A stretch of 64,000 bases of DNA. It comes from a candidate division WWE3 bacterium (GTDB lineage Bacteria; Patescibacteriota; WWE3; UBA101185; UBA10185). The stretch's first letter is position 1, and every line of letters begins with the position of its first letter. Below, one piece after another: positions 4,751 to 13,791 of the stretch. Location of the stretch: positions 64,593-128,592 of the forward strand of contig WJKK01000001.1 of assembly GCA_014729135.1 (NCBI GenBank), given 5' to 3'. The notes beneath the pieces were generated by a model. That model saw only the letters and a program-made list of their open reading frames with translations, searched no databases and was not told the DNA's origin. Both the position numbers and the translations under genes were made by a program.

Positions 4751-5647
4751 TTAGTCAGAGCCCCACCATGGGAAATCCCGGGCGGGGTTGATGGGAGCTT
4801 CCCCATCTTCGGTCGGGCAGATGACGACGCCACCGTGAGGGTACTCGAGCCGGATTGGCTCGGTGGCGTCGAAGTTGTACTGGATTTCCTCACCATCAAA
4901 CTGATCTAGGATCAGCGTGGTGTTCCCGAACGTACGTCCGGGCTGGAGCCAGTACAGCGCGAAACCCTCCGTGTACGTCACCGGATCGGAGGCTGATGCC
5001 TCCACGGACCGGCGAATTGCGCCGACGTAGTCGGGGCTGTTCGTCAGGCGATCCAGAGCCACGTACAACTCTCCGGAACCCTTGAGGTCGTTGATCATGG
5101 AGACCAGAACCCCGGCCGGGACGCAGGTGGCGTCTCCAACCTGCCGGATGGCGGCTTCACCGTCGATTTCGGGCGCGCCGTCCAAGGCGATCAACCCGAA
5201 GGTGCTCGGGATGTCCGCGGGGCCGGTGACCGCCCAAACGCCAGTGCGCCCGTCAACGATCAGGGGAGTAACGTTCTCCGGAATCCGGCCGTAGAAGCCG
5301 GTCCAGATGACGTACGTCCCAGAGATCGGGTCCAGCGCGGTGGGACCGTTGACGTGGACCTTTCGGGGGTCCGCGTCTAGGAGATCGATGGCGTCGTAGG
5401 GGTCCAACTCACTGAGGGTGATCACCAGTGCGTCGAACTCCTCCGTCGGCTCCACAGTGGGAACCGCGGTCGGCGGGGCGACGGGAACGGGGGTGGAAAC
5501 GACCGTAGGTTCGGCGGGGGGCGTCGCGTCGGAAGACGCATCGCCGCCGAACAGAACGTAGCCGGCGAATCCCAACCCGAGGGCCAGGACGCCGATCGCG
5601 AACAGAACGACCAAAACCCGGACAACGGCCTTCATGTTAATCGTCAT
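4751..5647 (-). CDS. Membrane-anchored or secreted protein with a Pro/Ala/Thr-rich linker, encoded in a high-GC island; function unknown
   Basis: 298 aa. N-terminal TM/signal anchor (VVRVLVVLFAIGVLALGLGFAGYVLF), then a PPAEPTVVSTPVPVAPPTAVPTVEPT linker. Strong RBS (AAGGAGACTTAAAATG). Local GC ~62-65% versus ~40% in the flanks. Confidence 0.6.
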   Translation of the reverse strand: MTINMKAVVRVLVVLFAIGVLALGLGFAGYVLFGGDASSDATPPAEPTVVSTPVPVAPPTAVPTVEPTEEFDALVITLSELDPYDAIDLLDADPRKVHVNGPTALDPISGTYVIWTGFYGRIPENVTPLIVDGRTGVWAVTGPADIPSTFGLIALDGAPEIDGEAAIRQVGDATCVPAGVLVSMINDLKGSGELYVALDRLTNSPDYVGAIRRSVEASASDPVTYTEGFALYWLQPGRTFGNTTLILDQFDGEEIQYNFDATEPIRLEYPHGGVVICPTEDGEAPINPARDFPWWGSD

Positions 5648-5716
5648 TTTAAGTCTCCTTTGCTCACGCCGTTTTGGCGGAGCTAGTAATTGTTCGAGCG
5701 ATCGAGAAACGCGAAA

Positions 5717-6037
5717 TTACTCCCAGACGAAACGGAGCCGGCGGCGGGAGGGGGCGGCGGGTGCCGGAGCGGGTGCCGGGGAAATCTGATTGGCCCGCTC
5801 GAGCAACTCCTGACCACTATCTGTCAGGATAGCGGCCAGCTCCCGCTGGGCCTCAGCCACGCCCTTACGGGCTTCGTCGGCGGCCTCACGGGCCTCCGAG
5901 ACCTCTCCAGCCTTCTCGGCCAGAGTTTGCATCGCCTCGTCGGCGGCCGTCTGGGCGGCCTGATGGGCGGTCATAGCTTCAGTCAAAACCTCTTGTGCCT
6001 CACGCAAACGCTCCTGAACCTCTACCAATGTAGCCAT
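5717..6037 (-). CDS. Small Ala/Glu-rich coiled-coil protein in the high-GC island; function unknown
   Basis: Start placed at MATLVEVQERL, preceded by AAGGAGGAACAGAAAATG; the ORF track's longer start lacks an RBS. Heptad-like AEAQ/EAxxEA composition and a Pro-Ala tail. Confidence 0.5.
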   Translation of the reverse strand: MATLVEVQERLREAQEVLTEAMTAHQAAQTAADEAMQTLAEKAGEVSEAREAADEARKGVAEAQRELAAILTDSGQELLERANQISPAPAPAPAAPSRRRLRFVWE

Positions 6038-6063
6038 TTTCTGTTCCTCCTTAAGGAATGATT

Positions 6064-6087
6064 GGGGCCTGTGGCCCGGTTTTTTTC
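6064..6087 (+). terminator. GC hairpin plus T7 run at the right edge of the GC-rich island
   Basis: ggggcc-tgt-ggccc followed by ggttttttt. Confidence 0.35.
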
Positions 6088-7030
6088 GAACGATTCCATC
6101 TCCGCAAACTTCTGCAGAGTACTGCAAACCTAAAAGCAACTTGGCACTTTAAATCCTCCCAAATCCCACACTTCACATCTAAAAAACAAACAAAAAGTGC
6201 TCAAAATTACTCCCAAGTTAGCAGTACCCTACTTTGGTTTTGCGTAGTGGAGATTCTGAATCAAGTTCAGAATGACGTTTCCCTTGTCAAAGAAGTATTC
6301 CCTTACCGGAACAACGCTTCCCTATCAGAGAAACATCTCCTTGTCGAAATGACGTTTCTTCACGAAAATCAAAAACCTACAAAAAGGAAAAATGACTTCA
6401 AGAATTTAAGCAATACCTTTGTATTTACTAACTAACCCTATTTAATTATCAAACTGCCTTTAAATGGCTAAAAAGCTATTTAAAAATTCAACCCTTAAAA
6501 ACTTTAAGCAAGATTCTTGCTTTTAGACATTAAGAGCTGATTTAGAAACTCCTCCTAATTGCCAAGCAACCTTTGCGGGGTCGCGTGCATGTATATATAA
6601 AGGAGAAATTGCTAAATCATTTGCTATTTAGCTTAGCCTTTATCCTTGTAAGTGCTGTAAGTAACCGAATAAAGCGGCGTAATAGCTTGTTAGCAATGGT
6701 ATCAGTAGTATCAGTGTTATCGGTGTTATCAGGCCAAACTTTGGAGGTTTTTATGTCCTCCTCATTTGCTGATGACTAAATCATACTATGGGACAGGTGA
6801 CTTGTCAAGTGTTATGGGATACTTTTGTGCTGGGCTGCTTCATTGGCCCACTTTAGTGACCCGCAAGAACACAGCACAAGGAACTGGAAAGGAATCTAGG
6901 AGAGTCCTGTCCGCAACATCCCCTAACTGAGGTTTATTATACTACGGGTTATAGGATGTGTCAACTTGTCGCATTGGATAATAATTTTTGTCATCCAAGC
7001 CCTCTTGTTGAAATGCAAAGTGGGGCAAAA

Positions 7031-7360
7031 CTACAAAAGCAACGCAAATTTCCAAGGAACCTTCACCATAGCATCGTTCACCTCCAAAGGGCTTGCTGAA
7101 AAAATCAGGCCGTAATCTCCTCCTATGGAACGCAGCGTTTCTGCAACTTGAGCGTAGTTCTTCCGGCCGGAACCAACCTCAATAATAAGGCGACGATCAG
7201 GACGCTCCAGAATAAAATCAGCGCCCTCCCGCGAACTATCATAGAACAGGGGCTTCTCTACTCCCGAAATCAACATCTCCTGTAAGTATCCGGCGGTAAT
7301 ATCCTCTAAAAGATACCCCTTATATTTTGAATACGCTTCCTCCCCATTAAGGGCGTACAT
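7031..7360 (-). pseudogene. Possible C-terminal remnant of a third COG1373/DUF4143-type ATPase paralog
   Basis: The 109 aa ORF has GADFILERPDRRLIIEVGSGRKNY, resembling the C-terminal (D...ExK-like) segment of the neighbouring ATPases (EIDFVL...GLEVKNT and KEIDLI...GFEFKWG). No ATPase domain is present. Confidence 0.3.
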
Positions 7361-7537
7361 TAAAGAATAGCGAAAGGCTGGTGAAGTAAAGTAATACAGT
7401 AAATGCGCTTACTGTGTCAACGCGTTGATACAGTAAGTGAAAAACCTCTTTCCTGCCTAGTACATAAGCATTTATAGTAAAACTAAGTAACTTATTCGCG
7501 GTCACTACGTTAAATTTTGCATTAAACTATAAATCAG

Positions 7538-8743
7538 CTACAAATCCCAGGCCATAATTGCCTTATCTAAATCCGTGAAGGTGTTGCTAACCACATAGTA
7601 TTCCTCAATACCCGCGGAATTTGCACGTTTTTTAAGGTTAGCCACATCCCTCTTGGTAGCCGTGTTTTTTACCTCTAAACCCACCTCCTCATTTAAAACA
7701 AAATCAATCTCACCTCCGGAAGAAGTCTGATAATAAGATAATTCATGCCTTCCCACCAAATTCATGTAAACACTGTTTTCCAGCTGACTCCCCTCCGCTA
7801 TAGATCCCAAGATATTAGCCAAACCCGTATCCCGAAAATACACCTTTTTTGCAGAAGAAACCGAATTATCTAAACTGGACTTTTGCGCAAGCAAATCAAT
7901 AACATAAGTCATTTTTAGCAACTCCAAATATTGATAAACTTTCTTACGGCTTATCTTAAGGGCATTAGCCAGTACATCTATATTTAGGCGCTGCCCTACT
8001 CTTTGGGTAAGAAGCTTCAATAAATCGCGTAATTTAGCAATGTCCTCAAAATCAGCAAAAGTAGTGACATCCTTTTGAAAGTAAGAATTGATAATGTCAT
8101 GCAACCGCTTTTTCTTCTCTTCCTGACGTGCGGCTAAGACAACCTCCGGAAAGCCTCCGTAACGAATATATTGGGAATAAAGCTCTTTATAGGCGGATTC
8201 ATGGACTTTCCTTTTGTTTGCCGACAATTGAGAAAGGGTATCCTCCCCCTCCGGAATGACCTTCTTTACCTCCTTAAAATCAAGAAATTCCCTAAATGTA
8301 AGCGGATATAGTTCGAAAATATACTTACGACCGGCAAGGCTTTCTGTAAAGTGATTTTTAATATAGTAACTGGAGGATCCTGAGAGGAAAAACTTAATAT
8401 TGTACTTGTCATAGAGATACTTGACTATAGAGGGAAGATTTGGGCTGAATTGTACTTCATCCAGAAAGACATAGGCTCTTGAGGCCTTTTTTGTTAGGTC
8501 AATGCCGCGTTCTTCTAAGGAGCGTGCCACATCTTCATAACTCTTTAGGGTGAAGATATCTCTAACTAAGGCATCTTCCAGGTCAAGAAAAACCTTGTTG
8601 GAAGTCTGAAGTTGCTTGTAAAAGTGGCGCATAACGGAGGTTTTTCCTACACGACGCATGCCTGTTAAAACGATTACCTGGCGGGAATCCATGTATTTGG
8701 CTATTTCTGGCATTATTTGGCGTTGTATTATTTTTTGTTCCAT
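7538..8743 (-). CDS. AAA+ ATPase of the COG1373/DUF4143 family with a C-terminal PD-(D/E)xK-like segment
   Basis: Walker A VIVLTGMRRVGKTS, Walker B-like VFLDEVQ, C-terminal GGEIDFVLNEEVGLEVKNT. Paralog of CDS 10166-11308. Confidence 0.8.
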   Translation of the reverse strand: MEQKIIQRQIMPEIAKYMDSRQVIVLTGMRRVGKTSVMRHFYKQLQTSNKVFLDLEDALVRDIFTLKSYEDVARSLEERGIDLTKKASRAYVFLDEVQFSPNLPSIVKYLYDKYNIKFFLSGSSSYYIKNHFTESLAGRKYIFELYPLTFREFLDFKEVKKVIPEGEDTLSQLSANKRKVHESAYKELYSQYIRYGGFPEVVLAARQEEKKKRLHDIINSYFQKDVTTFADFEDIAKLRDLLKLLTQRVGQRLNIDVLANALKISRKKVYQYLELLKMTYVIDLLAQKSSLDNSVSSAKKVYFRDTGLANILGSIAEGSQLENSVYMNLVGRHELSYYQTSSGGEIDFVLNEEVGLEVKNTATKRDVANLKKRANSAGIEEYYVVSNTFTDLDKAIMAWDL

Positions 8744-8792
8744 ACTTAGGCCTTATTGTACAATACCCCCCCGTTTGTGTGCAAATTCCGAC

Positions 8793-8813
8793 ACAAATAC
8801 CGGGGGTATTTGT
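8793..8813. promoter_or_regulatory. Perfect 9-bp inverted repeat ACAAATACC-GGG-GGTATTTGT, 50-70 bp upstream of ATPase gene 7538-8743; putative operator
   Basis: Seen directly. A near-identical ~45-bp block including the palindrome recurs upstream of the paralogous ATPase (11421-11441). Confidence 0.5.
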
Positions 8814-8843
8814 GCAAAGGCCGTAAAGTAAGGCACTTTAAAA

Positions 8844-9572
8844 TTAGCTACGGGCTATTTCACTATCTAAAAGCATCAACAACTCCGGCTTGAGATGTGG
8901 CAGAATTTTATTAAGTTTGGCGGTATCCATTAAAGGATTGAGATCCTCACGCAAACGCTTTTCGGTTATATGTTTAGTGATAAAATCCCGAAGGTACTCA
9001 AGATACTCTATGTGGGCTTTACCTGTACGCTCCTCCACCACACGAGCATTCACTGCTATCCCCTGCTCAAAAAACCTATGGATATCATAAAAATCGCGAC
9101 CCGCTATCTTGCCTTTTTTTTCAAACCTTGCTGTAGCTGCAACAAGCTTGTTAGAAAACATTGTTTCAGGCGTGTGACCTTGGCAAAACATGCGCACTTC
9201 CTGAAGCTGAGCCCGCTCGTAAGAATTGAAGGAGCTGGGAGCATCGTTGATATCTATTTTTAGGGTGTTTCTTGCGTTCTCGGGCGCATCATAACGGAGA
9301 AAAAACTGCAGGTAGTTGCGGGATTCATCTTTGATCGCCAGATCTAGATCTGCAAAAATAGTGTGCAGCTCCTGCTTTACCTTAGGTGAAGAATCTTGGT
9401 TGAGCAAATCAAAATCCAAATCCACTGAAAATCTATCCAAAAACCCACGAAGTGCTGCGTAGGTACCTCCTTTGAAAACTAGCTCGTTAGCTAAAATTTC
9501 GTTAGAGAGAATTTCCCGCAGTAAGCGCAACAATTGTACCTTGTGTCTGATTAGACGACGCGGGGCTTTCAT
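8844..9572 (-). CDS. abiEii: AbiEii/AbiGii-family nucleotidyltransferase toxin (type IV TA)
   Basis: N-terminal LVFKGGTYAALRGFLDRFSVDLDFDL matches the hallmark FKGGTAL...R.S.DIDF motif of DUF1814/AbiEii. Start overlaps the upstream gene by 4 nt. Confidence 0.8.
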   Translation of the reverse strand: MKAPRRLIRHKVQLLRLLREILSNEILANELVFKGGTYAALRGFLDRFSVDLDFDLLNQDSSPKVKQELHTIFADLDLAIKDESRNYLQFFLRYDAPENARNTLKIDINDAPSSFNSYERAQLQEVRMFCQGHTPETMFSNKLVAATARFEKKGKIAGRDFYDIHRFFEQGIAVNARVVEERTGKAHIEYLEYLRDFITKHITEKRLREDLNPLMDTAKLNKILPHLKPELLMLLDSEIARS

Positions 9573-10132
9573 GACAACACCTCCTTTAGCTCCTGAAAAC
9601 GATCCGAATCTAATACCTGTGGATTGTCCAGATAATAACAGGAACTGTAGTATTCCTTGTCTGCAGCTGCTCTCTCCGGCGTGGCAATCGCATAGGTTGG
9701 AAAATCATGAATACCTGTTCTATCTAGGAGGCGATCCGGCTTCATTTGTTTGCATGTAAAGTGAAAGTTGGCAATAGAATATTCCTTTGTTTTCTGCCCT
9801 ATAAGAGTGATTTTAGGTATGTCTTGGAAAATAACACCTTCTTTTACCAATACTGTTTCAAGTGAGATGTAGGAATAAGGCCCCATTAAGGCGCAACCTA
9901 GCTCATACGGATCGATTTTATCCAGGGGCTTCTTTGCATAAAGTCCTTTATGAACGCGATATAAGAGACCTCGTTTGATGTAACGAGAAACTGTCTTCCA
10001 AAGTGTGTTTTTGTTTTTTATCCCCCAAAGAACCGACATATCATCTGTAGTAAAAAGGTTAGCCGGTGTCTCAAGGAGGCTTTTGAGTTTGTCTCCCTTG
10101 TTTGTCCTGTACATATGTGTACAGGATAACAC
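9569..10132 (-). CDS. abiEi: AbiEi-family antitoxin/transcriptional regulator (type IV TA partner)
   Basis: ...LFTTDDMSVLWGI...LLYRVHKGLYAKKP...DPYELGCALMGPYSYISLETVLVKEGVI fits the AbiEi_4 N-domain plus the conserved P-SYISLESAL segment. Immediately upstream of abiEii and overlapping it. Confidence 0.7.
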   Translation of the reverse strand: MLSCTHMYRTNKGDKLKSLLETPANLFTTDDMSVLWGIKNKNTLWKTVSRYIKRGLLYRVHKGLYAKKPLDKIDPYELGCALMGPYSYISLETVLVKEGVIFQDIPKITLIGQKTKEYSIANFHFTCKQMKPDRLLDRTGIHDFPTYAIATPERAAADKEYYSSCYYLDNPQVLDSDRFQELKEVLS

Positions 10133-10165
10133 AACAGGAATACCTTAGCAAACAATTGGATAGAG

Positions 10166-11308
10166 CTAAGTAATAAAATCCAAATAATTCCCTTTATTCA
10201 TAACCTCATAGGTAGCATTGTCATAAGTTCCCAGCCAATCCCTTGGAGCCTTGGGCTCTTTACTTCCCCACTTAAACTCAAAGCCGTACAGCTTTCCATC
10301 CCTTTCCTCAATCAGGTCAATTTCTTTTTGGTCATATGTCCTCCAGAAGTAGTGGTTAGCATAAATATCCAGATATTCCCTTTTCTTTAGGCGCTCAACA
10401 AACAAATAATTCTCCCATAACATTCCTACGTCATCACGAGTTCCTAAATCGTTGAAATTATTAATAACGGCATTGCGTACGCCATTATCAAGGAAATAGT
10501 ATCTCGAGTTTTTTATCACTTCCTTGCGTAAATTTCGGCTAAACCCTCCTACTCTCTTAATGACAAAAACCTCCTCTAACAAGAAGAGGTACTTTTCGAC
10601 TGTATGAAAGGATAAATTCAAACTGTTAGCAAGGGCAGAAATGGACACTTCATTACCAATTTGAAATGCCAACAACTTTAGTAAATCAAGAAGTTTATCG
10701 GATCTCCTCAGATCTTCTAAAATCAAAAGATCTCTAAACAGATAGTTATCAACTATAGAATTAAGAATCTGCATTTTGGCATCAAGAGAGGGGGCTAAAA
10801 CAATCTCCGGATAAGAACCAAAAATAAGCCTTTCCTCTAGGCGTCCCCGGGTTTCCAAAGGATTTTCATAGGAATTCAGCTCCAATTGGGCAAAAGGATA
10901 AAGCAAATATTGCCACTTACGACCAACTAAAGGCTCTCCTATTTGATTTGCTAAGGAAAAGGAAGAAGATCCTGTAGCAACAACTACTACATCGGGTATA
11001 TTATCAACTATTAACTTGATGTTTAGGCCAATCTTATTGATGTGCTGAGCCTCATCAATAAAGAGGTAGTTATAAGACTCTAGGTTTCTTTTTAGGACTT
11101 CAATGGATTGACTACCTAACCATTCTGACACAAAACGATCTTCTCCCGTTACGGATAAAATAGAAGCTTTGGTTGTTTCTTCTAGCTGTTCTTTTAAGGA
11201 ATTTAGCAGAGTGGTTTTACCCACTCTACGGGGACCATAGATTATTGCAGCCCTCTTTGGTGAGAGGCTCTGCATTATTTTAGATGTGCTGTAGCGTTTT
11301 ATTTTCAT
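10166..11308 (-). CDS. AAA+ ATPase of the COG1373/DUF4143 family with a C-terminal PD-(D/E)xK-like segment (paralog)
   Basis: Walker A AIIYGPRRVGKTT, Walker B YLFIDEAQ, C-terminal KEIDLIEERDGKLYGFEFKWGS. Confidence 0.8.
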   Translation of the reverse strand: MKIKRYSTSKIMQSLSPKRAAIIYGPRRVGKTTLLNSLKEQLEETTKASILSVTGEDRFVSEWLGSQSIEVLKRNLESYNYLFIDEAQHINKIGLNIKLIVDNIPDVVVVATGSSSFSLANQIGEPLVGRKWQYLLYPFAQLELNSYENPLETRGRLEERLIFGSYPEIVLAPSLDAKMQILNSIVDNYLFRDLLILEDLRRSDKLLDLLKLLAFQIGNEVSISALANSLNLSFHTVEKYLFLLEEVFVIKRVGGFSRNLRKEVIKNSRYYFLDNGVRNAVINNFNDLGTRDDVGMLWENYLFVERLKKREYLDIYANHYFWRTYDQKEIDLIEERDGKLYGFEFKWGSKEPKAPRDWLGTYDNATYEVMNKGNYLDFIT

Positions 11309-11420
11309 TTATTCATTTAATAGAGTTACTACGTGCTTCTTACTGCACGTATTTTAGCAAATATACGCAGTATGTGCAAGAGAATTGGCCAATTCGCCTT
11401 CGCTCTATGCAAAATCCAAC

Positions 11421-11441
11421 ACAAGTACCCGGGGTATTTGT
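11421..11441. promoter_or_regulatory. Second copy of the ACAAATACC-N3-GGTATTTGT palindrome (one mismatch), upstream of ATPase gene 10166-11308
   Basis: acaagtacccggggtatttgt within a conserved block (tgcaaaatccaacacaagtaccc...), about 110-130 bp upstream of the 11308 start. Confidence 0.45.
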
Positions 11442-11935
11442 ACCGATACATCAAAAACCTTACCAAACATTTCTGTTAAGAGAAATAATTTCAATTGAAA
11501 CGGGAGTATTTGGTTTTGTCCCCTGTTAGTGAGGTTTGGAAGGGCTCAAATTCTAAAGAGCATTGCTTGCACGTTTGGTAAGGTTGCTTTAAGTTTTAAA
11601 TTAGGTTCTATGTTTCCTACTGTCCAGGAAACATGATCTTATAGAAAGAACACTCTGGGAGTGACGCTTCGGTCGCACATCTTGGGGTGTTTTTTCGTTT
11701 ATTCCTCTCTTTTTTAGTCTAGAGTTCAAAGGATTATCCTCCATCAAATACAGACTTCTTCCTGGAATTACAGCAAATGGAGTATTATTCTGAAGGATTA
11801 TCCTTGGTTTTTTAATACTATTCCCTTTAGTTGCAATAGCCATGCCTTGTTCAACAGAGGGTCGTCCTTTGAAAACCTCATAGACTTAAAAGATTTAAAC
11901 CTTTACAACACATTCCAAAAAAGGTACAATAAACT

Positions 11936-12200
11936 CATGCAAAAAGTCAGCATTAAAGACGCCAGAACCAACCTCTCCTCCATCGTGGAAGATGTCAGTG
12001 AAAGGCAAAAAACCTATGTTGTTACTAAGTACGGGAAACCCCGAGCCCTCATAAAACCTGTTACCTACAAAAATCTCCGGGATCCCTCCCCTAAAGAAGA
12101 CAAAAAGCTCAAAGCATTAAACAGTTCCGCGGGAATGTGGAAAGACAAGGATTATGATTACAAAAGGGAAAATTCACGCTATGAAAACATATTTGATTGA
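11936..12200 (+). CDS. Phd/YefM-family type II antitoxin
   Basis: MQKVSIKDARTNLSSIVEDVSERQKTYVVTKYGKPRALIKP is the canonical Phd/YefM N-terminus. Start chosen at the internal ATG at 11936 rather than the ORF-track start. Confidence 0.65.
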
Positions 12201-12561
12201 TACTAACGTTTTTATTAGGCACTTTAGAGGTGATAAAAAGGCTACGCGCTTTCTGAAAAGCGTGCGAAACAATTCCTACATTTCCTATATTGTGGCAGGC
12301 GAACTGCTCCAAGGAGTGGAGAATAAGAAGGATTTGGCTGTGGTAGAGGATATACTAGATGCTTGGGAAATCGACTGGGGAGATTCTAAGATCCACAAGA
12401 AAGGGCTGGAAATTTTGAAAAACGTTAACCTAAAAAACAAACTGGGCTTACTTGATGCGATTATTGCAGCTACGGCAATAAAAAACGGGAGTGTCTTGGT
12501 TTCGCTTAATCGGAAACATTTCAAGGATGTGGAGGGTTTAGAGCTTAGAGACAAGTTCTAA
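12181..12561 (+). CDS. PIN-domain toxin (VapC-like)
   Basis: MKTYLIDTNVFIRHF... has the PIN acidic residues (D6, E, D). Overlaps the antitoxin gene by 20 nt. Start at the ATG at 12181 rather than the ORF-track 12154. Confidence 0.7.
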   Translation: MKTYLIDTNVFIRHFRGDKKATRFLKSVRNNSYISYIVAGELLQGVENKKDLAVVEDILDAWEIDWGDSKIHKKGLEILKNVNLKNKLGLLDAIIAATAIKNGSVLVSLNRKHFKDVEGLELRDKF

Positions 12562-12684
12562 GCTGAGACTCAACAAATTCGGGCGCCAAAACAGTAACAC
12601 CAGAATTAAAAACCGAAAAAGTAGGAAACTAAGAAAACAGGCTGCCAACTACTTTTAGAAACAGGAAAACCACAGCAACAGCCC

Positions 12685-13791
12685 CTAATCTTCAAAAACC
12701 TCCGCAAAAATCATCCGGCCGGCAGAACCCTGCAAATTCTTCTTCACACAAACCTTAACCTCATCCCCTACCAAAGCCTTGCCTGCCTCCACAATCACCA
12801 TCGTGCCATCCTCTAAATAACCTACCCCCTGACCGTCCTCCTTACCTTCATCCAAAACCTTGATCTCAAACTTTTCACCCGGAAGATAGCGCATCCTTAG
12901 GGCATTTGCCAAGTCATTCAAGTTTAAAACCGAGACTCCCTCAGCTCCCGCTACTTTATTTAAAGAGAAATCCAACGTGACCAAAATCAAATCGTATTTT
13001 TTGGCGTATTTAACAAGGGATTTGTCGACGCCTTCCTCCAAAGGAGTAAATTCCTCTACAACCTCTAAATTTACCTTTTTGTCCTTTCTTAAAGCTTTTA
13101 GCAAGTCTAAACCTCTGCGACCTTTTTGCCGTTTTAGCTTGTCCTTACTGTCTGACAAAGTATGAAGTTCGTCCACAACAAACTCCGGAACTATGAGATC
13201 ACACATTAAAAACCCTGTTTTTGCAATGTCTAAAAGGCGACCATCAATTAAAACGGAGGTGTCCAAAACCATGGAACCTTTGTGTTTTTCCTTTAACAGT
13301 GCTTCCTTTTCTTTGCGGGCTTCTTCCTTAGCCTTGCGCTCCTCCTCCTCTTTTTTCTCGAGCTCCTTCTTATCTTCCCTTTCCTGGCGGGCCTCTCGCA
13401 TTTTATCCGTTTGCTGCTCCCAGAAGTCCGTTACAATGTCGCTAACAGCATCAAAAACGGCTTTTAAAACCCAGTGCTTTAGTGCAGAAAAAGCTTTTGG
13501 TACAACATAGAACCCCACCGAGGCAGTAAATAGGGAGATGAGAAATTCAGCTAAGAATTTGCGACCAAACAGGGGGTAATTATCAAAGAATACCTCATTG
13601 GAAAAGGTAAAACCTAGAATTAAGAAAACTAAGCCTAAAATGACACGGATTACTAGGGAAACTTCTTTTGGGGAGGGCTTGTCGTTGGCGCAGTCGTGGG
13701 CAGATTTTTTGCTTTCACTAGCACGTTTTTCAAAGGTTTTATTCGCTCCCTTGGTAGGAATCAATGTCTGAGTTTGATCTTGTAAAGCCAT
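12685..13791 (-). CDS. Membrane-anchored PIN + TRAM domain protein (YacL-like)
   Basis: N-terminal TM helices, PIN core (MVLDTSVLIDGRLLDIA...), C-terminal TRAM-like beta domain (GDEVKVCVKKNLQGSAGRMIFAEV). Sits downstream of radA as in Firmicutes. Confidence 0.7.
   Translation of the reverse strand: MALQDQTQTLIPTKGANKTFEKRASESKKSAHDCANDKPSPKEVSLVIRVILGLVFLILGFTFSNEVFFDNYPLFGRKFLAEFLISLFTASVGFYVVPKAFSALKHWVLKAVFDAVSDIVTDFWEQQTDKMREARQEREDKKELEKKEEEERKAKEEARKEKEALLKEKHKGSMVLDTSVLIDGRLLDIAKTGFLMCDLIVPEFVVDELHTLSDSKDKLKRQKGRRGLDLLKALRKDKKVNLEVVEEFTPLEEGVDKSLVKYAKKYDLILVTLDFSLNKVAGAEGVSVLNLNDLANALRMRYLPGEKFEIKVLDEGKEDGQGVGYLEDGTMVIVEAGKALVGDEVKVCVKKNLQGSAGRMIFAEVFED

Follow-up and report, generated by a model that had tools for sequence, protein, structure and literature searches.

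Which protein reads the palindrome that stands, almost unchanged, upstream of two ATPase–nuclease genes of a candidate division WWE3 bacterium, and which genes does this site control? The two genes lie in a window of 64,000 nt (the whole stretch of DNA analysed here), which belongs to an 864,248-bp contig of this member of the candidate phyla radiation (CPR, Patescibacteria), in which both are annotated as 'AAA family ATPase'. The region that houses them (7031-12561) is a small accessory island in the WWE3 chromosome in which several separate modules, all of known kinds, lie side by side. They comprise two divergent genes of the PDC-S01 type, named here ATPase1 (7538-8743, minus strand) and ATPase2 (10166-11308, minus strand), what is left of the 3' end of a third such gene, a type IV toxin–antitoxin pair (AbiEi/AbiEii), and one of type II (Phd–PIN). 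In order of falling coordinates, the minus strand carries ATPase2, abiEi, abiEii, ATPase1, and an open reading frame (ORF) of 109 aa, and the plus strand carries phd and PIN. All the ORFs named in a preliminary description of the island, made from the sequence alone, are found in the ORF list of the window where that description placed them, and profile searches against Pfam, PADLOC, and NCBIfam agree with the identities that it gave. The genes themselves are of known kinds, and apart from the dyad there is nothing unusual about this CPR locus, a series of toxin–antitoxin and candidate defence genes; the modest new detail is a conserved dyad in the promoter of one ATPase subfamily. The explanation that accounts best for the locus, and that is on balance probable, joins four statements: the island consists of known modules, the dyad is an operator of the ATPase1-subfamily promoter, ATPase1 represses its own transcription through it, and the second copy of the site is a decayed duplicate.

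The dyad and the promoter to which it belongs

The dyad ACAAATACC-N3-GGTATTTGT occurs exactly at 8793-8813, upstream of ATPase1, and with one mismatch at 11421-11441, upstream of ATPase2. With up to three mismatches allowed, these are the only two matches in the 64 kb, against 0.02 expected, in agreement with the near-identical palindrome that had been reported before both genes. The two copies share a block of 34 nt (8780-8813 and 11408-11441) that is 88% identical, far more similar than the two ATPase proteins (27% identity), and the identity beyond the block is ~56%. At ATPase1, the site takes the form of a perfect 10-3-10 palindrome, CACAAATACC-CCC-GGTATTTGTG in the minus-strand reading (O1, 8792-8814; p = 0.005 versus shuffles), just upstream of the -35 box of a promoter-like site, TGCACA-17-TACAAT, that was returned by the promoter scan (8755-8783, minus strand). 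A half-degenerate dyad, ACAAAC-G7-TATTGT (O2, 8760-8778), whose centre lies 34 bp downstream of that of O1, fills the spacer between the -35 and -10 boxes of this promoter; it was identified by reading the sequence and by comparison with the related loci L033, L084, L078, L086, and L065, which hold a dyad in the same spacer. Between the end of the -10 box and the ATG of ATPase1 there are 11 nt, so that the leader of its transcript is very short or absent.

At ATPase2, sequence comparison delimits a second block of the ATPase1 type (11408-11441), which retains the palindrome at 20 of 21 positions (O1', 11421-11441) together with a TTTGCA motif, 123 nt upstream of the ATPase2 ATG. The adjoining part, which corresponds to O2 and the -10 box, is decayed (TACAAT to GCCAAT). 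O1' also lies ~20 nt upstream of a promoter-like site on the plus strand (11460-11489) that faces a structured non-coding element resembling a small RNA (sRNA; element (i), below). Moreover, ATPase2 possesses a proximal promoter-like site of its own, TGCACA-16-TAAAAT preceded by TG (11351-11378, minus strand), flanked by the imperfect inverted repeat ACTGCGTAT...ATACGTGCAGT.

The assignment of the dyad depends on its distribution among related loci. Pattern scans for the palindrome returned 21 genome and 42 metagenome loci, which is about the chance level by an estimate made without a computed control, and no match in viral contigs; only two of these loci, L008 and L033, are related to the window. 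L033 encodes an ATPase1-like protein (48% identity) and carries a perfect palindrome within TTGACA-17-TAAGAT, 8 nt before the ATG; the gene just upstream of it is not abiEii, and the contig is too short to show what lies beyond that gene. L064 holds the closest relative of ATPase1 (82% aa identity), with 75% DNA identity over abiEi(3')–abiEii–block–ATPase1 that ends at the ATPase1 stop codon, and it keeps the palindrome as 10-2-10 along with the same promoter. In L008, a Saccharibacteria contig, the palindrome and O2 have a divergent PDC-S01 gene on one side and an AbiE pair on the other; just downstream of the block, a sensitive tblastn search detects a decayed ATPase1-like C-terminal remnant (~4900-5049). 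Lastly, L065, L075, L076/L077, L078, L084, and L086 carry ATPase1-type genes of 50-58% identity that have a common promoter, TTGACA-[ACAAAT...ATTTG]-TAnAAT, with the ATG close behind, and no AbiE in the flanks examined. The layout in which the dyad lies between TTGACA and TAnAAT and the ATG follows after 6-11 nt is found in L033, L065, L075, L076, L084, and L086. The same short distance of 6-11 nt separates the -10 box from the start codon of the ATPase1-type genes of the window (8743-8760) and of these six loci, and of phd (11925-11939), which suggests leaderless or near-leaderless mRNAs for these CPR accessory genes.

The two arms of the dyad are altered together in some loci, specifically to ACAGAT...ATCTG in L084 and to AAACAC...GTGTTT in L078. 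Across 12 hand-picked and phylogenetically related sites, with G-T counted as a pair, 83% of the arm cells are complementary versus 77% in shuffles (0/500 reach the observed value), double changes affect 5 arm pairs (1/500 shuffles), and slid registers are only 28-49% complementary. The palindrome is a genuine cis-element, conserved and not a product of chance. The preliminary description took it for an operator shared by the two ATPase genes, and of this claim the element stands while the sharing does not: the dyad belongs to the ATPase1-subfamily promoter, because ATPase2-type homologs (59-67% identity; solitary genes in unrelated contexts) lack the block, ATPase2 has its own promoter-like site, and the recognition helix of the winged-helix domain differs between the two proteins (SRKKVYQYL in ATPase1 versus SFHTVEKYL in ATPase2). 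Confinement of the palindrome to two sites, which had been considered a possible sign of gene duplication, holds for the 64 kb but not beyond, as the site recurs before ATPase1-type genes in other CPR contigs.

The second copy could have lost any role. It is quite conceivable, if less likely than not, that the copy upstream of ATPase2 is a functionless relic of a duplication or recombination of the ATPase1 promoter, in which case the common regulation would be illusory. The decay of its O2/-10 part, the low identity beyond the block, the absence of the block upstream of ATPase2 homologs elsewhere, and the proximal promoter-like site of ATPase2 are all in line with this view, as are other traces of decay and rearrangement, including the pseudogene stump in the window and the remnants in L008. 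Against it, the palindrome is the best-preserved part (20/21) amid decayed surroundings, and the position of O1' relative to the promoter-like site that faces the sRNA-like element is matched in L008, where another palindrome, that of the abiEi start, occupies the equivalent place. In the favoured explanation, autorepression of ATPase1, the copy before ATPase2 would be a partly decayed promoter duplicate in which the palindrome has been retained; at most, ATPase1 would control through it the divergent sRNA-like element or the side of ATPase2 and abiE.

The neighbouring antitoxin is another candidate binder, since autorepression by AbiEi proteins, through inverted repeats in the promoter of their operon, is known (PMC7319586, PMC3985639). 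AbiEi would then co-ordinate the whole ATPase2–abiEi–abiEii–ATPase1 string. One palindrome copy precedes ATPase2 and the abiE genes, all of one orientation, the second copy comes directly after abiEii, and the scan predicts no intergenic terminator within the string; AbiE also adjoins the block in L064 and L008. This is unlikely, however, as the same dyad and promoter are present in L065, L075, L076, L078, L084, and L086, whose examined flanks hold no AbiE, and as the block of L008 precedes the decayed ATPase1-like gene and not abiEi, which has a promoter and a palindrome of its own in that contig. The abiEi of the window likewise has a different palindrome over its own start, and in the AbiEi operators that have been characterised there are two repeats of 23 bp instead of arms of 9-10 bp (PMC7319586). 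ATPase1 is the simplest binder because it is the sole protein common to all the dyad loci.

Instead of operators, the palindromes might be sites of recombination or cassette boundaries in a mobile array of the integron-like or hotspot type, as a palindrome bounds every gene unit of the island (11421, 10105, 8793, 7408), PDC-S01 genes are single-gene insertions in many contexts, and the window and L008 have in common four collinear elements, yet the genes between them differ or have no more than 24-30% identity and the flanks show no relationship. This proposal is very improbable: the four palindromes are unrelated in sequence and have no common core, in solitary loci the dyad occupies the interval from the -35 to the -10 box, as an operator would, no recombinase was seen in the island, though no systematic recombinase search was made, and the solitary genes examined are not surrounded by target-site-like repeats. 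A role of the palindrome in RNA, in the form of a hairpin that terminates or stabilises the abiEii transcript at its 3' end, would fit the location of O1 30-50 nt past the abiEii stop codon and the 10-bp hairpin that read-through RNA could form, but it is highly improbable, given that no U-tract follows O1, that the scan predicts no terminator there, and that in L033, L084, and L078 the dyad lies within the promoter spacer with no co-oriented abiEii upstream.

The ATPases as candidate binders of the dyad

ATPase1 and ATPase2 belong to PDC-S01, a combination of ATPase and PD-(D/E)xK nuclease that PADLOC lists as a candidate awaiting validation (PMC12988326). ATPase1 matches the PDC-S01 model PDLC04787 (8.6e-67, residues 1-386) and ATPase2, of another subfamily, the model PDLC04789 (9e-142, residues 1-379), in both cases over the full length. 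Pfam detects AAA_14 (3.4e-31 and 108 bits in ATPase1, 7e-25 and 88 bits in ATPase2; cut-off 27) and DUF4143 (4.9e-25 and 88.6 bits, 7.9e-37 and 126.9 bits, respectively; cut-off 28.1) in the two proteins, and an exact-sequence look-up of both gave no match. The best PDC-S01 sub-model differs between them and their pairwise identity is only 27%; the two are therefore distant members of one family and not recent duplicates, so that the term 'paralogous', applied to them at the outset, fits them only in a loose sense. The statement that such ATPase–nucleases are poorly characterised likewise needs qualification, since PDC-S01 is already catalogued as a candidate defence system. DUF4143/COG1373 was listed in the PD-(D/E)XK superfamily already in 2012 (PMC3424549), PDC-S01 ranks as the fourth commonest defence entry across all prokaryotes (PMC12988326), and in rumen genomes it is the most frequent single locus (PMC13356809). 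When eight candidates were tested in E. coli against T4, T5, and T7, four protected, and the one PDC-S01 gene tested is not reported among them (bioRxiv 10.1101/2024.09.26.614923).

Compared with PDC-S01 as described (AAA_14 plus DUF4143; COG1373), both ATPases are full-length single genes of the same architecture, and the proteins themselves show no difference. What this locus adds is the conserved promoter dyad of one of the subfamilies, the juxtaposition of two subfamilies with a defunct third copy, and AbiE as a neighbour. Pairing of PDC-S01 genes across subfamilies is frequent (L076 5001-8551; L078 2895-5516). The divergent pair of L078 is separated by an intergenic region of 177 nt that contains two palindromes, CAAACAC-N5-GTGTTTG and TGAGGAATAG-N8-CTATTCCTCA.

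The motifs that had been recognised in the two proteins, Walker A, Walker B, and EID...ExK, are present and conserved throughout the family. In an alignment of 68 sequences, 12 of them ATPase2-type, the invariant residues comprise G28, R30, G33, and K34 of Walker A (GxRxxGKT), D95 and E96 of Walker B, Q98, S123, S125, and R139, and, in the C-terminal domain, D305, E322, E345, D347, E357, and K359. The three motifs are kept in 98-100% of a second, balanced sample of 62 sequences from both ATPase subfamilies.

The predicted fold suggests how ATPase1 might recognise DNA. The AlphaFold2 model of ATPase1 (predicted local distance difference test, pLDDT, 92; predicted template-modelling score, pTM, 0.91) has its top Foldseek matches in archaeal Orc1/Cdc6 proteins bound to origin DNA (2v1u, 2qby, 1fnn), in eukaryotic ORC subunits, and in the STAND proteins Apaf-1, plant NLRs, and Avs (3sfz, 9jap). 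These Orc1/Cdc6 and STAND matches have a probability of 1.0, template-modelling (TM) scores of 0.24-0.45, and a sequence identity of 10-16%, and they assign to the first ~280 residues of ATPase1 an AAA+ core, a helical lid, and a winged helix. A sequence search of the PDB with the ATPase returned generic AAA+ matches only (E ~1e-3). The likeness to Orc1/Cdc6 and STAND proteins is one of structure, and membership is not claimed; ATPase1 differs from them in having no replication context and in carrying a C-terminal PD-(D/E)xK domain.

The C-terminal domain is supported as a predicted nuclease fold of the PD-(D/E)xK type, in keeping with the ATPase–nuclease fusion that had been proposed from the motifs. 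The last 121 residues of ATPase1, modelled alone (pLDDT 90.6), form an alpha-beta-beta-beta-alpha-beta core that places E322 on its first helix, D347 on its second strand, and both E357 and K359 on its third. The best fold matches of this domain are PD-(D/E)xK nucleases (Can2, 8bao; EcoT38I; Bax1; lambda exonuclease; T7 endonuclease I), although they are weak (E 0.05-0.25 and TM 0.22-0.45 for the first four, E 0.05-0.6 for all five), and the assignment is made because family, motif, and topology agree. With Can2/Card1 and the restriction endonucleases, the domain has in common both this core and the E...D...ExK residues; unlike Can2/Card1, the ATPase has no CARF domain or other ligand sensor.

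Orc1/Cdc6 proteins bind specific DNA sites via the winged helix. By analogy, ATPase1, probably in dimeric form, would use its Orc1/Cdc6-like winged helix to bind O1 and O2 and in this way repress its own transcription. More speculatively, and on the model of STAND and Orc-like proteins, the sensing of an invader might trigger an ATP-dependent assembly that releases the promoter and activates the nuclease domain. AbiE and Phd–PIN would in this scheme be ordinary toxin–antitoxin pairs, each autoregulated separately. If the dyad in the PDC-S01 promoter is a true operator, specific DNA binding by the winged helix becomes a testable handle on this family, and the dyad would also serve as a cis-element for sorting PDC-S01 subfamilies. 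A broader generalisation can be put forward only tentatively, namely that PDC-S01 proteins are sequence-specific DNA binders of the Orc1/Cdc6 type that act on a dyad in their own leaderless promoters, that extra copies of the dyad, such as the one before ATPase2–abiE and the sRNA-like element, link defence and toxin–antitoxin modules in one regulatory circuit, and that the elements common to the window and L008 are the control backbone of a mobile CPR island with exchangeable protein cargo.

Several points weigh against autorepression of ATPase1 through the dyad. First, the identity of the dyad-binding protein is pure inference. Second, besides the make-up of the covariation sample given above, the outer symmetry ACA...TG of the dyad coincides with the -35 box and with the TG position of an extended -10 element, so that promoter constraint explains some of the conservation, and L065, L086, and L076 are symmetric at the outer bases only. 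Third, PDC-S01 is an unproven candidate as regards defence activity, the sole tested member that was located being absent from the reported protectors. Nor does the arrangement extend to the family as a general rule: the proposition that every PDC-S01 gene has a palindromic operator was rejected, as 5 of 14 upstream regions beat shuffles. An ATPase2-type gene in L070 has a perfect 12-2-12 palindrome, AATACGTATAGT-GT-ACTATACGTATT (~5918-5945), abutting TTGACA; its close relative L071 is without this palindrome, the left arm being degenerate.

Toxin–antitoxin pairs and the remnant of a third ATPase gene

The AbiE pair stands between the two ATPase genes; ATPase2, upstream of abiEi and in the same orientation, is separated from it by 51 nt. 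AbiEii (8844-9572, minus strand), the toxin, is a DUF1814 nucleotidyltransferase with G35-G-T37 and D51-L-D53 as read from the translation (Pfam PF08843, 1.5e-20, 74.6 bits, cut-off 22.5; PADLOC AbiEii, 1.2e-28). The abiEi gene for the antitoxin/regulator (9569-10114, minus strand) overlaps abiEii by 4 nt; its longest ORF begins with GTG at 10132, and ATG 10114 is the more likely start, judging by the beginning of the hidden Markov model alignments and by the sequence. AbiEi matches the PADLOC profile over residues 16-184 (2.2e-32), stays just under the cut-off of Pfam AbiEi_4 (23.4 bits, cut-off 25), and reaches 49.6 against a cut-off of 150 for NCBIfam TAA_AbiEi (3.7e-13); gene order and overlap with abiEii fit AbiE. 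The palindrome across its start codon, TCCTGTACA-N4-TGTACAGGA (9-4-9, 10105-10126), of which L008 has a copy at 2726-2747, is a candidate AbiEi operator and would fit the self-repression known from abiE operons. The pair thus resembles known AbiE systems in being bicistronic with a 4-nt overlap, in an AbiEii above the Pfam threshold with GGT and DxD, and in an AbiEi-like gene with a palindrome at its start; it differs from them in that AbiEi falls under the curated Pfam and NCBIfam cut-offs, in the single 9-4-9 candidate palindrome as against two 23-bp repeats, and in being sandwiched by two PDC-S01 genes on the same strand.

The co-localisation with Abi genes, from which a role against phages or plasmids had been suggested, is real but not a rule, since AbiE stands beside the ATPase gene in 3 of ~12 distinct loci examined. 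In the other loci, the neighbours are unrelated genes, some of them resembling Fic, MNT/HepT, or Gp49/HTH_3 toxin–antitoxin systems.

The second pair, Phd–PIN, is by its domains and gene order a standard type II toxin–antitoxin pair. The antitoxin is of the Phd/YefM family (11937-12200, plus strand; PF02604, 1.1e-07, 32 bits, cut-off 29.8; TIGR01552), and the toxin is a VapC-like PIN-domain protein (12181-12561, plus strand; PIN, PF01850, 1.3e-17, 64.9 bits, cut-off 23.6) whose longest ORF starts at 12154. The most likely starts are ATG 11937 for phd and ATG 12181 for PIN, and the two genes overlap by 20-47 nt. The promoter scan places a promoter-like TTTACA-17-TACAAT 6 nt before the phd ATG. 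With the Phd/YefM–VapC systems the pair shares an antitoxin gene in first position, an overlapping gene for a PIN toxin, and both Pfam domains above threshold; it differs in that no VapC equivalog cut-off of NCBIfam is reached (best 44.2 bits, cut-off 140) and in a promoter geometry that suggests a leaderless mRNA.

Downstream of ATPase1, the ORF of 109 aa (7031-7360), which had been taken for a possible third ATPase fragment, is indeed a PDC-S01 pseudogene remnant, truncated at its 5' end (7031-7396, minus strand), of which the C-terminal ~121 codons of the nuclease domain are left. The fragment matches positions 328-426 of the 439 of PADLOC PDLC04786 (E 4.9e-07). A word-based homolog search returned only the fragment itself, and an exhaustive search yielded 176 relatives; among the best 150, the majority are ~470-490 aa long and matched over their last ~100 residues. 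The full-length relatives carry AAA_14 and DUF4143 and match PDC-S01. Homology detected by tblastn runs from 7396 to 7034, that is, 12 codons beyond the ATG, and then ends. The long relatives and the end of homology at 7396 show that the ORF is the 3' stump of a third PDC-S01 gene of ~480 aa that has lost ~360 codons. The lysine motif of its subfamily reads E-V-G-x-G-x-K. Between the remnant and the ATPase1 stop codon lies the long nested palindrome that had already been noticed there (30 bp, 7408-7437), with arms of 18 nt (7408-7425 and 7420-7437) that are 94% complementary; it lies where the homology with L064 stops (7531) and the remnant begins. As a terminator, this palindrome was rejected, for the fold of its RNA does not stand out (z -1.25), nor is there a U-tract after it.

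Flanks and non-coding elements of the island

To the right, the island borders on housekeeping genes for a PIN-TRAM protein and RadA. To the left, ~900 nt devoid of convincing ORFs are followed by an anomalous segment (4751-6139) with 64.5% GC versus ~41% in the genome, which contains a 298-aa Pro/Ala-rich ORF (4751-5647, minus strand) with an apparent N-terminal hydrophobic (membrane-anchor) segment and an ORF of 140 aa. Neither ORF has a Pfam match, the segment has no plasmid match, and it is of foreign origin or else the product of a chimeric assembly. A perfect 12/12 sigma-70 consensus, TTGACA-17-TATAAT, is present at 6936-6964 (minus strand) and is followed by ~800 nt that hold no convincing ORF; the first 140 nt after it have an unremarkable fold (z -1.44) and no Rfam match, and an Rfam scan of 6000-13000 found nothing.

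Four non-coding elements occur in the same order in the window and in L008. Element (i), of ~160 nt (11564-11722, plus strand), corresponds to L008 2441-2602 (minus strand) with 77% identity; element (ii) is the abiEi-start palindrome described above; element (iii) is the O1/O2 block (8762-8813; L008 4479-4529); and element (iv) is the promoter-like CCCATAACACTTGACAA..ATAGTA (6821-6778, minus strand; L008 6619-6662). The proteins encoded between them differ or, as with the ATPase and AbiE proteins, show only 24-30% identity, the genes that flank the L008 locus have no counterpart in the window, and a search of L008 against Rfam gave only chance miRNA-like hairpin matches. L008 also contains a decayed remnant of an AbiEi-like start. 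Matches to elements (ii) and (iv) in viral contigs look like chance, their flanks showing no similarity.

Element (i) has no Rfam match, was not found in phage or plasmid collections, and its covariance model detected no additional copy among 22 sources. Its predicted structure consists of two or three hairpins, with a stem of 22 bp and then U6 at the end. RNAalifold on the window and L008 copies gives -40.4 kcal/mol with 4 of 35 pairs compensatory; the z of the fold is -4.49. From its sequence and predicted fold, the element may be a small RNA, and because it is conserved and structured, the 80-aa ORF that overlaps it (11601-11843, minus strand) is probably spurious.

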